From an uncultured Verrucomicrobiae bacterium (GTDB lineage: Bacteria; Verrucomicrobiota; Verrucomicrobiia; Limisphaerales; UBA11358): a DNA stretch of 64,000 nucleotides. The notes beneath the pieces were generated by a model. That model saw only the letters and a program-made list of their open reading frames with translations, was not told where the DNA came from and did no database searches. The stretch covers positions 37,749-101,748 of the forward strand of contig CAWHCL010000002.1 in NCBI GenBank assembly GCA_963827815.1, given 5' to 3'. The position numbers and the translations under genes were made by a program. Positions 3,102-56,749 of the stretch are shown here, one piece after another. Numbering within the stretch: position 1 is the first letter of the stretch; every line of letters begins with the position of its first letter.

Positions 3102-3626
3102 ATGAAAAAAATAAACATCATAACTGCATTGACCCTGTTCGCGGGTTTCTGTGCCTTGGCAGACGAAGATTCAAATACTAATACCGTAATGGCCGCGCAG
3201 AATTCAATGAGCCGATCCATGGATGACATGACGGGAAAAGTGGGTGTCGGCATTACGCTTGGCGAACCCATTGGGGCGTCGGTAAAATATTTCTTTAACG
3301 ACACGATGGCCATTGACGGGGCAGCGGGCTGGTCCGCTCACGATCACAGCGGCCTGTATCTGCACAGTGATATCCTCTGGCATAACTATGATTTGCTGCC
3401 GGTCTCCAATGGCCGGCTACCGGTTTATTTCGGCGTCGGTGGGCTGTTCCGCGCCCGCGACCATGGCGAGGACAACCAAGTTGGCATCCGCGCGCCGGTG
3501 GGCATTTCGTATATGTTCGACAATGTGCCGGTGGACATTTTTGCGGAAATCGGGCCTGCCATTGATGTCTCACCGTCCATCCGTGGTGAAATCACCGGCG
3601 GCATCGGCGTGCGGTTCTGGTTCTAA
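3102..3626 (+). CDS. Small outer-membrane beta-barrel protein
   Basis: Signal peptide MKKINIITALTLFAGFCALA, an alternating hydrophobic beta-strand pattern, and a C-terminal GVRFWF ending in Phe. Confidence 0.75.
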   Translation: MKKINIITALTLFAGFCALADEDSNTNTVMAAQNSMSRSMDDMTGKVGVGITLGEPIGASVKYFFNDTMAIDGAAGWSAHDHSGLYLHSDILWHNYDLLPVSNGRLPVYFGVGGLFRARDHGEDNQVGIRAPVGISYMFDNVPVDIFAEIGPAIDVSPSIRGEITGGIGVRFWF

Positions 3627-3646
3627 ACTATTTCCTTCCGATTCTT

Positions 3647-4324
3647 ATGAAAAGGGAAACGGTTTGTCATTTCATTGCCGCGACGCTTTTTCTAGGCGCA
3701 ATCACGTCGCATGGGCAGCAATATTATTATCTCGACGAGGAAGGGACTGGGCCTTACATCCGCGCCGGAGTCGGGCCTTCATTTTTCCAGGATGGCAGGC
3801 TCAAGCAATTCGGCGGACCGGCAGACAGTTCCGTGCGATATGACACAGGCGTAGCCGGGGATTTCGCATTGGGCTATGCCTTCAATCGGTTCTTCTCGCT
3901 CGATTTTGAAACGGGCTACATTGGTGCGCGAATCAACAACGTTCCAGGCTACACTTCGGAACGTTCAACCATCTCCAACGTGCCGCTGCTGGCCAACGCC
4001 ACGGTGTCATTTCCCATCCCGCATTCAAACATCGTTCCCTATGCAGGCGTTGGCGCAGGCGGCGCGGTGTCTGACTTCAACACCGATGGTTTCAGCGACG
4101 GCGTGACAACGGTGGTCGGCCACGAATCGGACACGGTATTTGCGTGGCAGGCATTTGCGGGCGTGCGTTTCATGCTGGGTCCGCGCGCATCACTGGGCTT
4201 CGGCTACAAGTATTTCGCCACCCGCGACCCGACGTTCAGCTATCCACCCGGCCCGAATTTCGACGTTGGTTTTCGCGGCGTCAATACGCATTCCGTTTTG
4301 CTAACATTTCAAGTGAATTTCTAG
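3647..4324 (+). CDS. Outer-membrane beta-barrel protein (OmpW/porin-family-like)
   Basis: Signal peptide ending TSHGQQ, Gly/aromatic-rich amphipathic strands (AGDFALGYAF, WQAFAGVRFML, LGFGYKYF), and a C-terminal LLTFQVNF. Confidence 0.8.
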   Translation: MKRETVCHFIAATLFLGAITSHGQQYYYLDEEGTGPYIRAGVGPSFFQDGRLKQFGGPADSSVRYDTGVAGDFALGYAFNRFFSLDFETGYIGARINNVPGYTSERSTISNVPLLANATVSFPIPHSNIVPYAGVGAGGAVSDFNTDGFSDGVTTVVGHESDTVFAWQAFAGVRFMLGPRASLGFGYKYFATRDPTFSYPPGPNFDVGFRGVNTHSVLLTFQVNF

Positions 4325-6258: not shown

Positions 6259-7371
6259 TCATGGATTGCCGTAATCTTGCGCCATCTTGGGATACAATGC
6301 CATGAACGCGTTCGCGTCGTACCGCCCGCCATGATCCGGCGGCGCATTCGTTCCCGCTGGCAGCGTTGGAACTTGATGATCGAAGATGGCTTCCTGCTCG
6401 CGCATGGGCGACCAGATGAAACTGCCCAGCCCCTTGTGGTTAGGCGTGTTGAAAACCAGATCGTTGAGGAAACGCTTATGCCCGCTGTATTCCACGGCGA
6501 TGATGCCGAGGTTGGGATAATGCGTGGCGATGTCGTCAAAGGTCGTCTTCCAATCATTCGTCGCGTGCTCGGTGTAGCAGGACAGGCCGACGATGTCGAA
6601 CTGCACGCCCTGTTCGAGCAGGTTGTAAATCCATTCGCGCACCAGCGCATCGTTGCGCGCGAGCGAATGGTGCAGCATGATTTTGATGTCCGGATCCACC
6701 TCCTTCGTGGCGCTGATGCCGGCCTTCAGGAGCAGGGCGAGATTGCCCCAACCGCCCGCGTTGGTGACACCGGCATTGTGGGCGTCAGTCTGGGGATTGC
6801 CCGTCGAGGTCTTGGAAGTCACGCGGCCATCCGGCCAATCCAGGCCGAAGGTGATTTCATTGCCAATCTGCACCATGTCGGGTGTCGTGCCTTGCTTCTT
6901 GAGCGCGGTCAACACCGTCTTCGTCTGGTCATGCAACGCCTTCACCATGTCGGGAAACGCCAGATTCTGCCATGCGGCGGGTTTCGGTTGATTTTCCGGC
7001 GAAGCCCAGTTGTCGGAATAAAAGAAATCCACCAGCAACCCCATGTGGGCGGCCTTGGCGCGTCTGGCGAGAATCTTGACGTGCTCCAGGTCTCCGCGCG
7101 AAAAGACGCGCGTCGGTTCCACCACAGATGGCACGCGCACATAATTGAATCCGTTATCCTTGAGGATTTGGAAAAAATCGCGCTTCACGCCGTGGTCATA
7201 ATACACCGCGCCCGCGGCTTCATCTTCGAGCAGGAACGTGATGTCCGCGCCGAGGATGAACGGTTGCGCGCGCCCCGATTGATGGGACGTGGCGGGAACA
7301 TGCGCGCACCCAGCCACGCTTAATGCGAGGCAAAAAATCGTTAGTACGACCACAAATCGAATCGTATTCAT
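6259..7371 (-). CDS. Arabinogalactan endo-beta-1,4-galactanase, GH53 (lipoprotein)
   Basis: ORF 6259..7422(-) trimmed to ATG 7371; MNTIRFVVVLTIFCLALSVAGC has a lipobox. GH53 pattern: LGADITFLLEDEAAG..FQILKDNGFNYVRV, QIGNEITFG, IMLHHSL, DIVGLSCY. Confidence 0.9.
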   Translation of the reverse strand: MNTIRFVVVLTIFCLALSVAGCAHVPATSHQSGRAQPFILGADITFLLEDEAAGAVYYDHGVKRDFFQILKDNGFNYVRVPSVVEPTRVFSRGDLEHVKILARRAKAAHMGLLVDFFYSDNWASPENQPKPAAWQNLAFPDMVKALHDQTKTVLTALKKQGTTPDMVQIGNEITFGLDWPDGRVTSKTSTGNPQTDAHNAGVTNAGGWGNLALLLKAGISATKEVDPDIKIMLHHSLARNDALVREWIYNLLEQGVQFDIVGLSCYTEHATNDWKTTFDDIATHYPNLGIIAVEYSGHKRFLNDLVFNTPNHKGLGSFIWSPMREQEAIFDHQVPTLPAGTNAPPDHGGRYDANAFMALYPKMAQDYGNP

Positions 7372-29512: not shown

Positions 29513-30745
29513 ATGACCCAATCCCACAACCGCAATTTGATCATCCTCATTTTGGGAGCGCTCTCCACCATCAGCCCGTTCGCCATTGACATGTATCTGC
29601 CGGCGTTTCCCCAAATCGCCACCGCGCTGCACACTTCCACCGCCCGGATTTCCCTCACCATTGCCAGTTACTTCGCAGGCATGGCTGCCGGCCAGCTCTT
29701 TTACGGTCCCCTGCTTGACCGTTTCGGACGCAAACTGCCGCTCTATTCTGGAATGATATTATTCATCGTCGCGTCAATGCTTTGCCTCTGCTCGCGCACC
29801 GTGGAATGGCTCGTGGCCATACGCTTTGTCCAGGCGCTCGGCGGATGCGCCGCTCAAGTCGCCGCCATGGCCATGGTGCGGGATTTTTTTCCCGCACGCG
29901 AAACCGCCAAAATAATCTCGCTGCTGATTTTGATCTTGAGCGTCTCGCCGCTGCTCGCACCCAGCGCCGGCGTTTTTGTGGCCGTGCACCTCGGCTGGCA
30001 ATGGGTGTTCATCGTGCTCTCCGCGTTCGTCCTCCTGATGCTGGCCGTTTGCTGGTGGCGGCTGCCGCAGGGACACCAGCCCGACCGCACCGTCTCGCTG
30101 CGGCTCCTGCCCACCCTGCGCAACTACGCCACCGTCCTGAAAGAACCGCAGTTCATCACCTACGCGCTCTCCGGTGCGTTCGCCTTTTCCGGCCTGCTCG
30201 TCTATGTAGCCAGCTCGCCCATCATTTTCATGGAAGTGTTTCACGTCAGCGCCCAAAAATTCGGGGCCATCTTTGCCGGACTTGCCACCGGCTTTGTCGG
30301 CAGCAACCAGATCAACATCTTTCTCCTCCGCAAATTTTCCAGCGAGCAGATTTTCCGCGCCACGCTGCTCGTGGAATGTCCCGTGGCGCTGCTCCTTTTG
30401 GCGGGGACGATTTTTGGCTGGTTCGGACTGGACGCCACCCTCGCGCTGCTCTTCATTTCGCTGTCGAGCCTTGGACTGGCCTACCCCAACGCGGCGGCAC
30501 TGGCGCTGGTGCCCTTTGAGCGCAACATCGGCAGCGCCTCCGCCATGCTGGGCTTCCTGCAAATCGGCGTCTCCGGCCTCGCCTCCGCGAGCGTCGGCAT
30601 ATTTGATTCACACACGATGATGCCCGTGGCGCTCATTCTGGCCGCAACCTCCTGGATCGGCTTTGCGATTTTGATGGTTGGCAAACGCAGCATCCCACGC
30701 TTGCGCTATATTGAGGAAAAGGACGCCAACCTGCTGCCCCATTGA
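29513..30745 (+). CDS. MFS drug-efflux transporter, Bcr/CflA subfamily
   Basis: 12 TM segments. LGALSTISPFAIDMYLPAFPQIA and GPLLDRFGRK are Bcr/CflA signatures. Confidence 0.9.
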   Translation: MTQSHNRNLIILILGALSTISPFAIDMYLPAFPQIATALHTSTARISLTIASYFAGMAAGQLFYGPLLDRFGRKLPLYSGMILFIVASMLCLCSRTVEWLVAIRFVQALGGCAAQVAAMAMVRDFFPARETAKIISLLILILSVSPLLAPSAGVFVAVHLGWQWVFIVLSAFVLLMLAVCWWRLPQGHQPDRTVSLRLLPTLRNYATVLKEPQFITYALSGAFAFSGLLVYVASSPIIFMEVFHVSAQKFGAIFAGLATGFVGSNQINIFLLRKFSSEQIFRATLLVECPVALLLLAGTIFGWFGLDATLALLFISLSSLGLAYPNAAALALVPFERNIGSASAMLGFLQIGVSGLASASVGIFDSHTMMPVALILAATSWIGFAILMVGKRSIPRLRYIEEKDANLLPH

Positions 30746-53061: not shown

Positions 53062-53064
53062 AAT

Positions 53065-53144
53065 GGATTGTTGGATGAATGGATTGTTGGATAAATGAAG
53101 GGCGTTTTGGCCAACAATCCAACAATCCGGCAATCCAGCAATCC
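53065..53144. repeat. GGATTGTTGG / CCAACAATCC inverted repeat (hairpin)
   Basis: ggattgttggatgaatggattgttgg faces ccaacaatccaacaatccggcaatccagcaatcc. The perfect 10-bp stem pairs 53081-53090 with 53111-53120. ATG 53095 of the DUF167 ORF lies in the loop. Confidence 0.85.
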
Positions 53145-53448
53145 GGGCCTTCCAACGCCGCTGCCAAATTTCCTCCGCGCGCACACCGACGGCACGCTTC
53201 TTTCCGTGAAACTCCAGCCGCGCGCTTCAAAGAATGAAATTGGCGGACCGATTGGCGATGAGCTGAAAATCAAAGTCACCGCGCCGCCCGTGGACGCGGC
53301 AGCGAACCAGGCATTGATTGAATTGCTCGCGGAAAAACTGGATTGCCCACACGGCCGGGTTGAATTGATTCGCGGCCAGACCTCGCGGCACAAGACCATC
53401 AAGCTACACGGCTTCACGCCGGAGGAAGTAATTCAAAAGATTTCGTAG
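53095..53448 (+). CDS. DUF167 (YggU-like) family protein
   Basis: LSVKLQPRASKNEIGG..LKIKVTAPPVDAAANQALIELLAEKL..VELIRGQTSRHKTIKL matches DUF167. The first ~16 codons are encoded by the hairpin repeat, so the start is uncertain. Confidence 0.8.
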   Translation: MKGVLANNPTIRQSSNPGLPTPLPNFLRAHTDGTLLSVKLQPRASKNEIGGPIGDELKIKVTAPPVDAAANQALIELLAEKLDCPHGRVELIRGQTSRHKTIKLHGFTPEEVIQKIS

Positions 53449-53564
53449 GGCAGGCGTCGCGCCTGTCTCCATTTTTAACCCGTCACCATGCCTCTGAGGC
53501 ATTTGGAAACCACGGTTTCCAGACGGAATCGAAAGTCAGAGACAGGCGCGACGCCTGTCCTACG
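53444..53564. repeat. GTAGG..CCTAC palindromic element, intergenic copy (subfamily 1)
   Basis: The 26-nt arms cgtagggcaggcgtcgcgcctgtctc (53444-53469) and gagacaggcgcgacgcctgtcctacg (53539-53564) match 25/26 as an inverted repeat. Each arm is itself a hairpin (gacaggcg-cga-cgcctgtc). The TAG at 53446-53448 is the DUF167 stop. Confidence 0.9.
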
Positions 53565-53613
53565 CAAAATACTTTGTCACCTCTTCGCGCTTTCCAGCCA
53601 CATAAGCGACGAT

Positions 53614-55233
53614 ATGATGACATCCAAACTTATGCCGGTCGCAACAAACAACGACGCTGAACTGGTCGTGGGAACCCTGGCGGGCAACCGCGATGCCTTC
53701 AGCCAGATTGTTTCGCGCTATCAATCGCTCATCTGTTCGCTCACTTACAGCGCCACGGGTAATCTTGGGCAGAGCGAGGACCTCGCGCAGGAGACCTTCA
53801 TCACCGCGTGGAAACATCTTGTCCATCTGCGCGAACGCGACAAGCTGCGCTCGTGGCTGTGCGGCATCGCGCGCAACCGGATCAACAATTATCTTCGCCG
53901 TGAAGGCCGCGAGCCGCTTCACAAGGCCGAGTTGCTGGACGAAGCAGCCGAAGCACATTCACCGGAGCCGCTGCCAGTCGAATACACCATCAGCAACGAG
54001 GAACAGGCCATCCTCTGGCGCTCGCTCGAACGAATCCCAGAAATCTATCGCGAGCCACTCGTTTTGTTCTACCGCGAGCATCAATCCATCGAAGCCGTCG
54101 CCCAAAATCTGGAATTGACTGAGGACGCCGTGAAACAGCGGCTTTCACGCGGAAGAAAACTGTTGCACGAGCAGGTGCTGGCGTTTGTCGAGGGTGCGCT
54201 GGAACGGACAAATCCCGGAAAAGTTTTCACCCTCGGAGTTCTCGCCGCGCTGCCCGCGCTCACGATTTCCGCCAAGGCCGCAACGCTCGGCGCAGCAGCC
54301 GCCAAAGGCAGCGCGACGGCCAAGGCGGCGGGCGCGATGGGGCTATTCGGCGCAATTTTAAGTCCGCTGGTCGTCATTTTCAGCAATTACTTCAGCTATC
54401 GCATGAGCATGGACGAAGCCCGATCGGATGAAGAGCGCGTCCACATCAAGGCTCTTTTCCGGAATTCACTGTTGGTCGCGCTGGTGCTTTCCGCCGTGCT
54501 GGTGGTGCCGTTATTTTTGGCGTGCGGTAGCCAAGACAGCGCTTCGTTTTTTTGGGGTTTATGGTTTAGCCTGACCATCGTCATTTATTTTCTGACGATC
54601 GCTGTCTTTGGCTTTGGCTCACTTGCAGGGCGGCGCCGGTATCTCGCCAAAATTTTAGCGCGCGAATATGCCGGCAATTTTCCACCCGCCGCATACGAAT
54701 ATCGCAGTCCGGCAAGTTTGTTCGGACTGCCGCTCGTCCATGTCCGTTTGGGCGACCGTTTTGACGTGCTGCGCGGACCGGTGAAAGCCTGGATCGCCGT
54801 CGGCAGCAGCCACGCGGTCGGCGTGATTTTCGCTTCCGGCGGAATTGCCATCGCACCCGTGAGTTTCGGCGGCATTGCCATTGGCCTGCTGCCATTTGGC
54901 GCAATTGGAATCGGTCTGGTTTCACTGGGTGCAATCAGCCTCGGTGTCTGGTCCTTTGGCGCAGTGGCCATCGGCTGGCAGGTGTTTTGCGGAGCCGGCT
55001 TCGCTTGGAATGCGGCGATGGGCGGCATGGCGTTCGCGCATGATTTTGCGGACGGTGGCATCGCACACGCCGCGCAGGCCAACACGGAAATCGCCATACA
55101 GTTCTTCCGGCAAAGCTGGTTTTTCCGCTGCTCACAATTCATTTCCAATCACGGTCTGTGGATGATTTTTGTGGTTCCAGTGTTCTTGCAGGCACGGATT
55201 GCGGCGCGGGCACGTCGCCAGCGGGAAAACTGA
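53614..55233 (+). CDS. ECF-type sigma-70 factor fused to a C-terminal polytopic membrane domain
   Basis: Region 2 is DLAQETFITAWKHL..WLCGIARNRINNYLRR and region 4 is EAVAQNLELTEDAVKQRLSRGRKLL. About 350 aa follow with multiple TM helices and GGIAIG/FGAIGIG-type Gly-rich repeats. ATG 53614 chosen, because upstream codons lie in the palindromic element. Confidence 0.85.
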   Translation: MMTSKLMPVATNNDAELVVGTLAGNRDAFSQIVSRYQSLICSLTYSATGNLGQSEDLAQETFITAWKHLVHLRERDKLRSWLCGIARNRINNYLRREGREPLHKAELLDEAAEAHSPEPLPVEYTISNEEQAILWRSLERIPEIYREPLVLFYREHQSIEAVAQNLELTEDAVKQRLSRGRKLLHEQVLAFVEGALERTNPGKVFTLGVLAALPALTISAKAATLGAAAAKGSATAKAAGAMGLFGAILSPLVVIFSNYFSYRMSMDEARSDEERVHIKALFRNSLLVALVLSAVLVVPLFLACGSQDSASFFWGLWFSLTIVIYFLTIAVFGFGSLAGRRRYLAKILAREYAGNFPPAAYEYRSPASLFGLPLVHVRLGDRFDVLRGPVKAWIAVGSSHAVGVIFASGGIAIAPVSFGGIAIGLLPFGAIGIGLVSLGAISLGVWSFGAVAIGWQVFCGAGFAWNAAMGGMAFAHDFADGGIAHAAQANTEIAIQFFRQSWFFRCSQFISNHGLWMIFVVPVFLQARIAARARRQREN

Positions 55234-55234
55234 A

Positions 55235-56749
55235 TCAACGAATTTTCTCGGTAAGCTCCTCCGCCGGGTAAGTCCAGATTTCCGCCAACGTCGGATGATA
55301 ATGCGGCGTGGCAGCAAGCTCACGGACGGTCATCCGCTTCGCCATTGCGGTGACGATTTCGTGGATGAGATCACCGCCGACCGGGCCGACGCATGCGCCG
55401 CCGAGGATTTCGCCGGATTTCGGATTAGCCAGCAGTTTCACGAAGCCGTCCTTCGCCTCCATGATGAGCGATTTGCCGTGGTCGTTGAATGGATAACTTG
55501 CCGCGAGAAATGGAATTTTGCGTGCTGTCGCCACCTTCTCGGTCAAACCGACGAACGCGACCTGTGGGTCGGTGAACACTACGGAAATCAACAGGCGATA
55601 ATCCATCGGGCGCGGTGATTTCGGTTTCACGATGTTATGAATTGCCGTTTCGCCCTGCTGGATCGCAATATGGACAATTTCATGAGGTCCGGTGCAGTCG
55701 CCCGCCGCGTAAATGTGTGGCGAGGTCGTCCGCATGAACTCGTTGGCGACAATCCTCCCCTGCTCCGTTTTCACGCCGGCGCTTTCCAAGGCCAATGACG
55801 CGGTGTTCGGCACGCGGCCCAGCGCGAACAGAATTTCCTCGGCGGAAACGGAAACGGTTTTGCCATTCTGCTCAAAGGAAATTGCCTTCATCGTAGGACA
55901 GGCTTCCAGCCTGTTCATTTTCCGCTTAAGCGGTTGTTTGGACAGTCTGGAAGCCTGTCCTACGATTCGCGCGTCCAAAAGTTTTGTGCCGGTGAAAACC
56001 TTGATACCTTCGCGCCGGAAAACCTTCTCGATTTCGGTTCCGGCATCGGAATCGAACTCCTTCAAAATATGCTCGCTGCGCTGGATGAGTGTGACTTTGA
56101 CGCCAAATCGGGTGAAGAATTGTGCAAACTCGCAGGCAATCGCGCCACCACCAAGGATGATGAGTGATTTTGGCAATCGCTTCAGCGCCAGTGCGTCGTC
56201 GCTGGTCATATAACCGACATCTCGGAGCTGCGGCAGCGGAGCTTGCGCAACGCTTGAACCGGTGGCAATGATAAAGTGTTTAGCCGTAAGCTGGTAGGAC
56301 GCGTCAGTCCTCTGCGCGCCGTCTTTTATCATTTTCCCTGCGGCGCGCACGGAGTGACGCGCCCTACCTGTTAATTCCACCGTGTGCGCGTCCAAAAATG
56401 TTGCATTGGCGCGGATGAACTTGAACTTCCCGGCGTTGAGCTGCTGGACGCGATAATCCGCAAAATCATTGATGAGCGCATTTTTCCGCGCCATGACCTT
56501 CTTGAAATCGAACCCAACTTTCCTTACATGGATGCCCCACGGTTCCGGATGGCCGGCCAGGTGCATCACTTCGGCGGCATAGAGCAACGCCTTCGTCGGC
56601 ATGCAGCCGCGAAGAATGCAGAGTCCACCGACTTCCTCACCGCCCTCGATGATAATGGTTTTCAATCCCGCGCCGGCCGCCGTTCGCGCCGCCGCATAAC
56701 CGCCGCTGCCGCCGCCGATGACGGCCACATCGAAATCAAATTTTTGCAT
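55235..56749 (-). CDS. FAD-dependent pyridine nucleotide-disulfide oxidoreductase (dihydrolipoyl dehydrogenase / mercuric-reductase-like, class I) carrying two in-frame palindromic insertions
   Basis: VIGGGSGGYAAA (FAD), redox CILRGCMPTK, ILGGGAIACEFA (NAD), YAAGDC, and a C-terminal HYHPTLAE dimerisation motif. The product is 504 aa, versus the ~450-460 aa usual for this family. Confidence 0.9.
   Translation of the reverse strand: MQKFDFDVAVIGGGSGGYAAARTAAGAGLKTIIIEGGEEVGGLCILRGCMPTKALLYAAEVMHLAGHPEPWGIHVRKVGFDFKKVMARKNALINDFADYRVQQLNAGKFKFIRANATFLDAHTVELTGRARHSVRAAGKMIKDGAQRTDASYQLTAKHFIIATGSSVAQAPLPQLRDVGYMTSDDALALKRLPKSLIILGGGAIACEFAQFFTRFGVKVTLIQRSEHILKEFDSDAGTEIEKVFRREGIKVFTGTKLLDARIVGQASRLSKQPLKRKMNRLEACPTMKAISFEQNGKTVSVSAEEILFALGRVPNTASLALESAGVKTEQGRIVANEFMRTTSPHIYAAGDCTGPHEIVHIAIQQGETAIHNIVKPKSPRPMDYRLLISVVFTDPQVAFVGLTEKVATARKIPFLAASYPFNDHGKSLIMEAKDGFVKLLANPKSGEILGGACVGPVGGDLIHEIVTAMAKRMTVRELAATPHYHPTLAEIWTYPAEELTEKIR
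55891..55965. repeat. GTAGG..CCTAC palindromic element inside a CDS (subfamily 1), exactly 75 nt
   Basis: The arms tcgtaggacaggcttccagcctgt (55891-55914) and acagtctggaagcctgtcctacga (55942-55965) match 23/24 as an inverted repeat. Inner palindrome ccgcttaagcgg. Translated in-frame as IVGQASRLSKQPLKRKMNRLEACPT. Confidence 0.9.
56293..56368. repeat. GGTAGG..CCTACC palindromic element inside a CDS (subfamily 2)
   Basis: The arms ggtaggacgcgtcagtcctctgcgcgccg (56293-56321) and cggcgcgcacggagtgacgcgccctacc (56341-56368) form an imperfect inverted repeat. Translated in-frame as GRARHSVRAAGKMIKDGAQRTDASY. Confidence 0.9.

Follow-up and report, generated by a model that had tools for sequence, protein, structure and literature searches.

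Insertion of GTAG-headed REP dimers into genes was described by Di Nocera, De Gregorio and Rocco (2013, BMC Genomics 14:522, PMC3733652), who recorded REPs of this class from the PVC superphylum, from cyanobacteria and from Chloroflexi and found the intragenic dimers to be most numerous in Opitutus terrae (Verrucomicrobia). These dimers encode 20-30 amino acids, sometimes with two in one ORF, O. terrae included; the TAG of the head was already noted as a stop codon, and a degenerate GTGG head is known from O. terrae GTAG-20 (Di Nocera et al., PMC3733652). Comparable palindromes have been studied as REPIN-RAYT systems (Bertels and Rainey, 2011, PMC3116915; Nunvar et al., 2010, PMC2817692; Ton-Hoang/Corneloup et al., PMC8266576) and as Rickettsia palindromic elements (RPEs; Ogata et al., 2000, 2002; Claverie and Ogata, 2003, as cited in PMC3733652), of which the intragenic R. 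conorii RPE-4 and RPE-6 were classed as CGTC-tagged (PMC3733652).

Here we analyze a palindromic element, copy B, in a 64-kb stretch of verrucomicrobial DNA (the window), and conclude that it is in all likelihood a non-autonomous GTAG-class REP doublet with its heads facing outward, REPIN-like in form, that has become fixed in the gene of an E3-like flavoprotein. The features of the locus are as follows.

55235-56749, minus strand: host gene, an intact ORF of 504 amino acids
55890-55966, minus strand: copy B, an inverted REP doublet forming a REPIN-like palindrome (ATCG...CGAT)
55892-55916, plus strand: left REP unit of copy B, read from the sequence
55922-55933, no strand: central mini-palindrome CCGCTTAAGCGG in the copy B spacer
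55940-55964, minus strand: right REP unit of copy B, inverted, with GTAGGACAGGC at 55953-55963 on the minus strand
Residues 262-286 of the host protein: region spanned by example predicted peptides LLDARIVGQASR and MNRLEACPTMK
56293-56368, minus strand: copy A, a second in-frame GTAGG-headed doublet of the host gene, arms GGTAGGACGCGTCAGTCC / GGAGTGACGCGCCCTACC
53441-53567, no strand: intergenic doublet of the copy B REP family, 2.3 kb from copy B, arms of 29 nt that are 93% complementary, spacer 69 nt

Like the GTAG REPs of PMC3733652, which combine a GTAG head, a 6-9-bp stem and a short loop in a stem-loop of 20-40 nt, copy B is built of headed stem-loops, and its family shares with them the head-out inverted dimers with spacers of 20-100 nt and the heterodimers with different loops. 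Their dimers also lie in ORFs, sometimes two per ORF, as in the host gene here, and their head TAG may end an upstream ORF, as at our intergenic doublet, where the left head, through its TAG at 53446-53448, supplies the stop codon for the DUF167 gene (53095-53448). The O. terrae families of that study have sequences other than those of the copy B family, and the ACAGGC/GCCTGT stem and the peptides VGQAS.LS ... DRQDACPT and ETGATPVLR are absent from the intragenic peptides listed in its supplement. Insertion of GTAG REPs into genes is already published, and the copy B family adds a further case.

REPINs resemble copy B in joining two inverted REPs in one long hairpin and in lacking a target duplication, but they are multi-copy master sequences, whereas the copy B unit occupies a single locus, and they are described as overwhelmingly extragenic, whereas 11 of the 19 assessable doublets in the verrucomicrobial loci sampled here lie in long open frames. 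The likeness to RPEs, which are in-frame palindromes adding tens of surface residues to conserved or housekeeping proteins that apparently still function, is one of behavior only: judged by its GTAG tag and its host, copy B belongs to no RPE family and has no relationship to RPEs in sequence. RPE-1 is a longer palindromic insert, and the RPE host is an obligate intracellular alpha-proteobacterium, whereas that of copy B is a free-living soil or peat verrucomicrobium; the nearest named orthologues of the host protein come from Verrucomicrobiae/Verrucomicrobiota. Bacterial MITEs (Correia/NEMIS, ERIC, Nezha) are likewise small, non-autonomous and hairpin-forming and are occasionally co-transcribed or found in ORFs, but they have TIRs matching a parent IS and target-site duplications, neither of which is seen for copy B.

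Results

The palindrome is real and reads as the original prediction described it. An inverted-repeat search delimited arms of 28 nt at 55890-55917 and 55939-55966, 93% complementary and 21 nt apart; within them are the predicted 24-nt arms, matching at 23 of 24 positions with a single C/A difference, and between them the predicted inner palindrome, CCGCTTAAGCGG, at 55922-55933. The coordinates first given, 55891-55965, mark the identical palindrome but fall one base off the codon boundaries, since codons I262-T286, exactly 25 of them, occupy 55892-55966 (peptide IVGQASRLSKQPLKRKMNRLEACPT). Read as a stem-loop, an arm has the form GTAGG-ACAGGCT-TCC-AGCCTGT, with a GTAG head, a 7-bp stem and a 3-nt loop. 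In the left unit the CGTAG head (GTAG at 55893-55896) is followed by the stem half ACAGGCT (55898-55904), the loop TCC and the second half AGCCTGT (55908-55914), with an exact match to GTAGGACAGGC at 55893-55903; the stem of the right unit has one mismatch, AGACTGT in place of AGCCTGT, at a position where seven of eight carriers have the consensus C. Longer intergenic doublets of the family (L008, L096) contain in their spacers motifs of the form CCGCTCAAGCGG, which resemble CCGCTTAAGCGG.

The predicted RNA fold of copy B has an energy of -51.4 kcal/mol, compared with -18.9 +/- 3.0 for shuffled sequences (z = -10.9; none of 200 shuffles equaled it), and the DNA fold gives z = -10.3. The REP core GACAGGC-N5-GCCTGTC, with up to two mismatches allowed, occurs five times in the window where 0.2 occurrences are expected, and the arms of copy B and of the intergenic element at 53441-53567 account for four of these. 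The fold statistic and this excess of cores together indicate that the palindrome is not a chance feature. Kinship with the intergenic element, also predicted, is borne out by an identical GTAGG head and ACAGGC/GCCTGT stem, with a different loop. The proposal that copies A and B belong to one element family did not survive: copy A, which is read as ..GRARHSVRAAGKMIKDGAQRTDASYQ.. and takes the place of a turn DNGKK, has arms (GGTAGGRCGCGTCAGTCC) of another REP family, and the two have nothing in common beyond a GTAGG head and the architecture of a doublet.

Other identities for the hairpin were considered. Its resemblance to a tRNA cloverleaf (75 nt, 7-bp closing stem, three hairpins) was set aside, as ARAGORN found no tRNA or tmRNA in the window, and an Rfam search returned only a sub-threshold match to a plant miRNA precursor, reflecting a long hairpin. 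A role as intrinsic terminator or promoter was also rejected: no terminator-like site was found at the element, and the antisense strand has one weak promoter-like match, not meaningfully above expectation.

The host gene encodes a class-I pyridine-nucleotide disulfide oxidoreductase resembling dihydrolipoamide dehydrogenase (E3), with Pfam domains Pyr_redox_2 / Pyr_redox / Pyr_redox_dim and 1ebd as its top PDB match (E = 1.8e-68). The protein keeps the redox-active CxxxxC (C44, C49), the C-terminal HPTLAE motif and the invariant columns. Its score against the NCBIfam model TIGR01350, 381.5 bits, falls below the cutoff of 408.8, and we therefore leave the exact substrate unassigned. The nearest database orthologue is 82% identical, and the gene order DUF5069 - host gene - sigma70 - DUF167 - MIP is common to the window and the orthologues, which identifies the 120 sequences compared below as true orthologues.

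Alignment of these 120 close orthologues confirmed that copy B is an insertion and not conserved family sequence, as 99 of them have only the turn RKGK at this position, site B (..DAK-RKGK-LKTVSF..). Copy B itself is present in 8, a different palindrome at the same codons in 12, and a third palindrome, two codons upstream, in 1. The insert recurs at the identical codon in seven other orthologue protein clusters, and one presence/absence pair from other lineages (P0002 and P0037) has 96.4% amino-acid identity outside three insert regions. The second type of insert at site B (LVARAS...) had been assumed to have a GTAG head, an assumption ruled out by locus L004, where the head reads TAGTGG, i.e. 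GTGG.

The element encodes exactly 25 codons, as predicted, but the net gain is 21 codons: 75 nt stand in place of 12 nt (RKGK), adding 63 nt, and four ancestral codons are missing. At the copy B junctions no target-site duplication was found; 12 nt of the target are missing instead. This is not a clean insertion, it is unpredicted by the known chemistry of Y1 transposases, and it counts against the REP/RAYT reading.

It is scarcely credible that these 25 residues form a variable loop native to the enzyme and specific to its lineage, or an artefact of assembly or annotation, with the palindrome incidental. In the wider family this surface turn is indeed variable, and 1ebd has a few extra residues nearby, but the residues are missing from the 99 empty orthologues, their DNA is a 93%-complementary palindrome whose fold is far from random (z = -10.9), and its arms match both the intergenic repeat 2.3 kb off and repeats in many genomes and genes. 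Eight further contigs, read as DNA from JGI, ENA and NCBI assemblies, carry the insert at the same codon; with its presence in seven other protein clusters, this shows that it is not an assembly artefact.

An AlphaFold model built from the 120 close orthologues, whose mean pLDDT is low (58.8) and which we used for the local strand-loop-strand pattern only, assigns pLDDT < 50 to residues 265-284, between confident strands at 256-263 and 287-294, and alignment to 1ebd puts copy B in the beta-meander of the NAD domain. The model thus places the insert, as a prediction, at the tip of a beta-hairpin of the NAD-binding domain and gives weak support to a loop there.

Beyond the window, matches to CGTAGGRCAGGC-N5-GCCTGTC turned up in at least 120 genome stretches, where by our own calculation roughly 9 would be expected by chance in 596 Gb. 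Among the matches listed are several copies per MAG in Verrucomicrobiota, Planctomycetota, Oscillatoria and other cyanobacteria, Caldilinea (Chloroflexi) and Acidobacteriota, and related MAGs have the REP unit on several contigs each, SPRUCE 324 (L057, L088, L120) being one example. The listed copies are typically head-out inverted doublets with spacers of 20-90 nt. In genes of related MAGs, doublets of the family lie in frame within Pfam-confirmed domains of PurM, GlnRS, IspG, KsgA, a class-III aminotransferase and an ABC ATPase. A U32 peptidase, an N6-methylase and an ECF sigma factor also have in-frame doublets, either in a domain or next to one. Only two entry frames of the head were seen in genes, VGQAS..LS and RRTGV.PVS, in agreement with the prediction that two of three frames avoid the terminal TAG: the head GTAG closes the third.

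These copies also bear on whether copy B might instead be an ordinary MITE, derived by deletion from a DDE-type insertion sequence and keeping TIRs that the transposase of that sequence recognizes, rather than a REP/RAYT product. Its long inverted termini (24-28 nt), its small size and the multiple copies with variable interiors would suit such an origin, but no target-site duplication was found at copy B or at the other copies read, and each arm is itself a GTAG-headed stem-loop. Among the copies read, moreover, the arms of one doublet often have different loops, which makes the individual REP, rather than a pair of TIRs, the conserved unit; single REPs and same-orientation arrays of the core also exist (L017, L035, L038, L080). 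The same core, finally, flanks a transposase of the REP-associated kind, and we judge a MITE origin highly improbable.

That transposase is encoded in Cylindrospermum NIES-4074 (L011), where an ORF passes the NF047646 model for REP-associated tyrosine transposases (RAYTs) with 94.5 bits against a cutoff of 80 and is flanked on both sides by same-core REPs (3614-3637 and 4204-4227) with heads facing the gene, the arrangement of the REP-flanked, single-copy Y1/HUH transposase gene of REPIN-RAYT systems. Neither the 64-kb window nor the verrucomicrobial loci examined yielded a RAYT gene; a tblastn match of an approximate E. coli RAYT query at 30017-30292 of the window lies inside an MFS-transporter ORF and was discarded as spurious. 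When an HMM from 120 cyanobacterial RAYTs was run against the loci examined, the only match beyond L011 was a weak IS200-like ORF in L054 (E = 0.018), not flanked by REPs of the copy B family, and a homology search with the L011 RAYT returned only cyanobacterial names among the named entries of the best 120.

The insert is far more conserved than the gene around it. Among the 8 carriers identity over its 75 nt ranges from 92 to 100% (mean 96.7%, with 96% at third codon positions), compared with 84% and 79% for the adjacent 150 nt on either side (third positions 69% and 64%); identity falls within ~15 nt of the copy B ends, and the divergence of the element, roughly tenfold lower than that of the flanks, is star-like. 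This is unlike a passive, vertically inherited relic and counts against our preferred explanation. The carriers are interspersed in a neighbor-joining tree built with the inserts masked and have six different states at site A, the position of copy A ~360 nt away; the tree, itself star-like with long terminal branches, shows interspersion and cannot count gains or losses. The 30-nt spacer core occurs in the host gene only, in 241 M metagenome records, and the carriers have a short flank haplotype in common (R|insert|M-K-E-I), from which we infer that the 75-nt unit arose once and is now present in several non-sister lineages. One carrier, L005, matches the empty L128 at ~100% identity for the initial 720 nt and at 83-92% thereafter, a recombination-like mosaic that could also be an assembly chimera of short metagenome contigs.

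Such conservation raises the question of whether copy B is actively maintained or propagated at its site, which we think unlikely but worth weighing. The element might act as an mRNA hairpin, affecting stability or pausing translation between folding units, or as a DNA site for a REP-binding protein, with selection at the nucleotide level; or the allele might be moved between lineages by RAYT-driven replacement of REP by REP or by short-tract gene conversion. The contrast between insert and flanks, the scattered carriers with their six states at site A, the L005/L128 mosaic and the different REP families found on the same codons and at one intergenic position all speak for it. Against it, the 10 substitutions in the insert are each private to one sequence, 7 of them nonsynonymous and 3 synonymous, and the opposite arm never carries a compensating change, a pattern that looks like the neutral decay of a young allele and unlike selection on either hairpin or peptide; 99 of 120 orthologues function without the element, neither a terminator-like nor an Rfam-family signal was found, no transposase was found in the window or the verrucomicrobial loci, and the contigs behind the mosaic are short enough that it could be chimeric.

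Discussion

We favor the reading of copy B as a fixed, non-autonomous REP doublet, for which the following course of events can be proposed. By analogy with other GTAG REPs, a REP-associated tyrosine (HUH/Y1) transposase may have mobilized the doublet in single-stranded form, which would leave no target-site duplication; since a RAYT was seen only beside the cyanobacterial REP core, such an origin in the verrucomicrobial host is conjectural. Insertion swapped four codons (RKGK) for 25 at the tip of the hairpin, and the element probably survived because the net change in length is a multiple of three and because its entry frame, ATC GTA GGA ..., dodges the TAG of the head and is free of stops in the spacer, so that the gene can still be read through. 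The 25 residues are presumably translated into the protein, most likely as a disordered surface loop that is tolerated as such. The reading frame is kept, as predicted, and the 504-residue host ORF is intact. Frame preservation had further been taken as a sign of selection for frame-compatible insertions, a step we do not follow: purifying selection on an intact gene suffices, and the data show nothing more.

Copy B offers a natural case in which selfish palindromic DNA adds a segment to a conserved enzyme without destroying it, and in a group of soil and peat Verrucomicrobiota most of the short REP doublets sampled lie inside genes and not between them. Gene calling in MAGs, orthologue alignments and structure prediction are affected by such elements, which show up at beta-turns as spurious "insertions" of 13-45 residues. 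The orthologue series described here, in which a given codon site may be empty, filled or differently filled, constitutes a data set for studying how REPs choose or reuse sites and whether their alleles spread by recombination.

Two features of the series are unreported in PMC3733652: the low divergence of the insert relative to its flanks and, beyond a remark on Xanthomonas recB, the occurrence of many families at one codon. They invite the tentative idea, which we think unlikely, that REP doublets in this verrucomicrobial lineage are more than tolerated debris and that particular positions are reusable "docking sites" at which family is exchanged for family and alleles move between diverged lineages. 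Such sites would be three beta-turn or loop codon positions of the enzyme and the intergenic position that follows the DUF167 stop codon. A RAYT replacing a resident REP, or else short-tract conversion, might drive the exchange, and either would explain the variety of families at sites A, B and C, the non-monophyletic carriers and the low divergence of copy B. The same codons and one intergenic position are filled by different REP families in different lineages: at least 10 families have been seen at site A, 3 at site B and 3 at site C.

Copy B is a palindromic doublet within an oxidoreductase gene

The palindrome first noticed in the sequence at window positions 55890-55966, and termed copy B here, is confirmed, and it lies within a gene for a class-I pyridine-nucleotide disulfide oxidoreductase that also holds a second doublet, copy A.

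Features of the host gene and its surroundings (window coordinates)
55235-56749, minus strand: host gene, 504 aa
55890-55966: copy B, sequence ATCGTAGGACAGGCTTCCAGCCTGTTCATTTTCCGCTTAAGCGGTTGTTTGGACAGTCTGGAAGCCTGTCCTACGAT
55890-55917 and 55939-55966: arms of copy B, 28 nt each, 93% complementary, 21 nt apart (repeat search)
55922-55933: central CCGCTTAAGCGG of copy B (read from the sequence)
55892-55966, minus strand: codons 262-286 of the host gene, reading IVGQASRLSKQPLKRKMNRLEACPT
56293-56368: copy A
53441-53567: intergenic doublet, 3' of the DUF167 gene (53095-53448)

The original prediction had given the arms as 24 nt with 23 matches, which is correct, since arms of that length mismatch at one base. 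The gene-sense RNA of copy B folds at -51.4 kcal/mol, whereas dinucleotide shuffles give -18.9 +/- 3.0 (z = -10.9); for the DNA fold, z = -10.3. A single arm consists of GTAG followed by its own small hairpin (CGTAG-G-ACAGGCT-TCC-AGCCTGT), an anatomy identical to that of GTAG-tagged REPs, and the two GTAG units stand in inverted orientation, as in a REP dimer or REPIN.

The closest solved structure to the host protein is dihydrolipoamide dehydrogenase 1ebd (E = 1.8e-68), and its Pfam domains are Pyr_redox_2, Pyr_redox and Pyr_redox_dim; because it scores under the NCBIfam cutoffs for both lipoamide dehydrogenase and MerA, we call it only "E3-like", without a substrate. Among the columns that do not vary across 120 orthologues are those of the redox cysteines and of the C-terminal HPTLAE motif, which the query keeps as well. 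Its closest named relatives come from Verrucomicrobiae/Verrucomicrobiota MAGs, and the gene order DUF5069 - host gene - sigma70-type factor - DUF167 - MIP channel is kept in orthologous contigs, so the comparison set represents true orthologues.

Site B is empty in most orthologues

Aligning the 120 best matches (73-82% full-length identity) revealed one empty and three filled states at the position of copy B, designated site B. The 25 residues are missing from 99 of the 120 and thus are not conserved family sequence, which supports the proposal that a palindromic repeat was inserted in frame.

States of site B among 120 orthologues
Empty: 99; ..TKLLDAK-RKGK-LKTVSFEQNGK..
B1: 8, query included; ..DAR-IVGQASSLSKQPLKRKMNRLEACPT-MKEISFEH..
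B2: 12; LVARASRPSESRGQDARAT, distinct from B1 but in the same codons
B3: 1; a further insert, VGTSRCDVP...RAVPT, lying two codons upstream

In DNA, the empty allele is GCG AAA CGC AAG GGG AAA TTG AAA ACC and the filled allele GCG CGA ATC GTA GGA ... CCT ACG ATG AAG, so the 75-nt palindrome substitutes for 12 nt, a net addition of 63 nt; "exactly 25 codons" therefore describes the length of the palindrome but not the gain, which is 21 codons. Comparison of empty and filled DNA at the copy B junctions showed no target-site duplication. B2 in the L004 orthologous contig is a 60-nt palindrome with the head TAGTGG, and B3 in contig L007 is a palindrome headed by GGTAGGGAC.

Alignment to 1ebd places copy B in the beta-meander of the NAD domain, between strands ..TKLLDA and ..KAISFEQNGK. 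An AlphaFold model of low overall confidence (mean pLDDT 58.8) puts residues 265-284, at below 50, between strands 256-263 (block mean 91) and 287-294 (block mean 95), and copy A is modeled similarly, with residues 130-149 low between strands 123-127 and 152-161; from this local strand-loop-strand pattern, each copy replaces a beta-hairpin turn. Both may be tolerated as disordered surface loops.

The REP family of copy B and its transposase link

The intergenic doublet shares the head and stem of copy B and carries another loop (ACAGGCG-TCG-CGCCTGT), bearing out the resemblance that had been claimed between them; copy A, which had been assigned to the same family as copy B, belongs to a different one. 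The REP core occurs five times in the window (0.2 expected), four of these being the arms of copy B and of the intergenic doublet. A scan of 596 Gb, at one genome per species, for CGTAGGRCAGGC-N5-GCCTGTC returned at least 120 matching stretches, where the information content of the pattern predicts about 9 by chance. The matches listed come from Verrucomicrobiota, Planctomycetota, Oscillatoria and other cyanobacteria, a Caldilinea MAG, Acidobacteriota and others, often from multiple contigs of one genome. The usual verrucomicrobial doublet has the form CGTAGGACAGGC-loop-GCCTGTCTC, a spacer of 20-90 nt and GAGACAGGC-loop-GCCTGTCCTACG, and its two arms frequently bear unlike 5-nt loops (GTCGC, ATCCT, TTCCA, GTCCC, ATCTT), so the conserved unit is the single hairpin and not a terminal-repeat pair. 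In a Pirellulales MAG (STL-PLA34; L080 5992-7007), seven REP units of this family lie in one orientation about 154-168 nt apart, a tandem array with one REP per repeat, unlike the inverted doublets of Verrucomicrobiota.

In Cylindrospermum sp. NIES-4074 (L011), the ORF at 3662-4192 matches both Pfam Y1_Tnp and NF047646, the NCBIfam equivalog model for the REP-associated tyrosine transposase (RAYT), at 94.5 bits (cutoff 80). REPs with the copy-B core lie on both sides of this gene (3614-3637 and 4204-4227), their heads facing it, and a third lies in frame within it (3934-3957, read as ..VNRRDACSTE..), between the HUH motif and the catalytic-tyrosine region. The gene with its flanking REPs matches the published REPtron arrangement, and the copy-B core therefore belongs to a RAYT-associated family. 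We found no RAYT in the 64-kb window or in the verrucomicrobial loci examined; that the association extends to the verrucomicrobial host is an inference by analogy. The likeliest mechanism, which we regard as well favored, is that a RAYT-type REP doublet would have become fixed in a beta-turn of the host gene and been read through as a surface loop.

GTAG-tagged REPs are known in Proteobacteria, cyanobacteria, Chloroflexi and the PVC superphylum, and their dimers have spacers of 20-100 nt (Di Nocera, De Gregorio and Rocco 2013, PMC3733652). More than half of the intragenic inserts are made up of dimers or groups, which encode 20-30 aa, some ORFs hold two, and the authors related such inserts to Rickettsia palindromic elements (PMC3733652). 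The TAG of the GTAG head may also act as a stop codon (PMC3733652), a feature present in the window, where the TAG at 53446-53448 of the intergenic doublet ends the DUF167 ORF. Peptides of the copy-B family (VGQA.., ..ACPT, ..PVLR) are missing from the supplementary peptide list of PMC3733652, and our literature search found no paper quoting the REP core sequence; copy B therefore adds another REP family, in another host lineage, to an already described phenomenon.

Doublets within other genes

In-frame doublets are general in these genomes, and many of the copy-B family in the loci examined sit in long open frames. With GTA as a codon they read VGQAS(R/S/C)LS...DRQDACPT or ...ETGATPVLR, and the other open frame gives RRTGVxPVS; the third is shut by the TAG of the head, in agreement with the original prediction that only two frames avoid it. 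Pfam identifies the host ORFs as real genes, and in most of them one domain match spans the insert, as in PurM (AIRS_C 174-365, insert 242-266). Other hosts recognized by Pfam are the genes for IspG, KsgA, GlnRS (catalytic domain), an ABC ATPase and a class-III aminotransferase, and also those for a U32 peptidase, an N6-methylase and an ECF sigma factor. Of 19 assessable doublets in verrucomicrobial loci, 11 lie in a frame that stays open for 100 codons or more past both ends. All 11 are among the 14 short doublets (67-82 nt), and the five long ones (100-226 nt) contribute none, a split paralleled in the window by the genic 75-nt copy and the intergenic 121-nt copy. The U32 peptidase of verrucomicrobial MAG MFD01689 (L100, ORF through 7088-7154) carries a VGQASRLS...ETGKMPVLR doublet together with ..PPSGGSPVKPPEGGTPNT.. 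and ..GRAGNSLPADGAHGVTRPT.., two palindrome-like peptides from other families, so that this one gene would hold three in-frame repeat insertions.

Low divergence of copy B

At the DNA level, eight carriers of copy B whose DNA was compared are far more alike within the insert than beside it.

Divergence among eight carriers
Insert, 75 nt: identity 92-100% (mean 96.7%); third codon positions 96%
Left 150 nt: identity 84%; third codon positions 69%
Right 150 nt: identity 79%; third codon positions 64%

Raised flank identity is limited to the first 15 nt on either side, and a short flank haplotype is common to carriers. On a tree with the insert regions masked, carriers are scattered among non-carriers, which are their nearest neighbors, and carriers show six different states at the site of copy A (site A). 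Within a metagenome collection, the 30-nt spacer core occurs in this gene only, with two matches, both in orthologues. The simplest interpretation would be that copy B arose once, comparatively recently, and then reached diverged backgrounds by recombination. The alternative is strong nucleotide-level constraint; in a translated palindrome of length 3n, the third position of every codon is paired with a first codon position of the opposite arm. However, the ten insert substitutions, each private to one sequence, are mostly nonsynonymous (7, with 3 synonymous) and none is compensated, which argues against selection on hairpin or peptide. Short metagenomic contigs can be chimeric, a caveat for this interpretation. 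L005 171-1706 (site B filled) and L128 927-2399 (empty) share about 100% identity in their first 720 nt, after which identity falls to 83-92% until close to the 3' end; this break, just upstream of site B, reflects either a recombination mosaic or a chimeric assembly.

Reuse of sites by different REP families

Together with this low divergence, the reuse of sites by several families is worth pursuing. At site A, the plain turn DNGKK is found in just 5 of 120 orthologues; the remaining sequences have palindrome-derived peptides of 13-42 aa and of at least ten different kinds, among them GRADLPVGQDARQRVPTK, NCSVRPVAEPDRAAGSTLQ, NPFRGSGRESAPSNQSRLTSAAT, SWERRLPAG...PAGSRRSRK, TSPLPASGHPLPALRGEGRGEGRPR and VWSSGFSRPEPPEGGTPS. 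Their DNA consists of GTAG-headed doublets of different families, heads outward, with a left boundary that shifts by 1-13 nt. Three families occur at site B, and three at a third hot spot, site C (near residue 375, ~374-380, about 55610-55630), where 5 of 120 orthologues have 18-23 extra residues, one family being that of copy A (..ADGAHGVTRPT; ..GRAGSPLPADGAHGVTRPT..); site C is empty in the window's gene.

The intergenic site 3' of the DUF167 stop holds a GTAGGGCAGGC doublet in the window (53441-53567), a GTAGCAGCCGAC doublet in L004 (6130-6300) and L007 (4520-4660) and a GTAGTGTCGAGC doublet in L003 (6050-6220), and is empty in contig L001 (6100-6190); in L004 and L007, too, the TAG of the REP head is apparently the DUF167 stop. 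Selection for permissive turns can account for the coding sites but not for the intergenic one, and the reuse may stem from a target preference that the families share or from replacement where a REP already resides. The empty sites read GAC AAC GGA AAA AAA (site A, orthologue L129), CGC AAG GGG AAA TTG AAA (site B, L001/L128) and GAGAAATAGTAAATG (intergenic, L001); all three are rich in purines and in A and share a GGRAAA-like core, which is at most a hint, from three sites, of a target preference.

Between the MIP channel gene and the DUF167 start, window 53064-53144 holds an inverted repeat of GGATTGTTGGAT-type units (arms 28-32 nt, 78-82% complementary) of a different repeat family. The mechanically called sigma-factor ORF (53488-55233, 581 aa) begins within the intergenic REP doublet and would read ..SETGATPVLR..; since orthologues have 503-552 aa and their conserved part starts near GATATGATGAC, the start is probably further in, most plausibly at the ATG around 53614-53617 (MMTSKL...).
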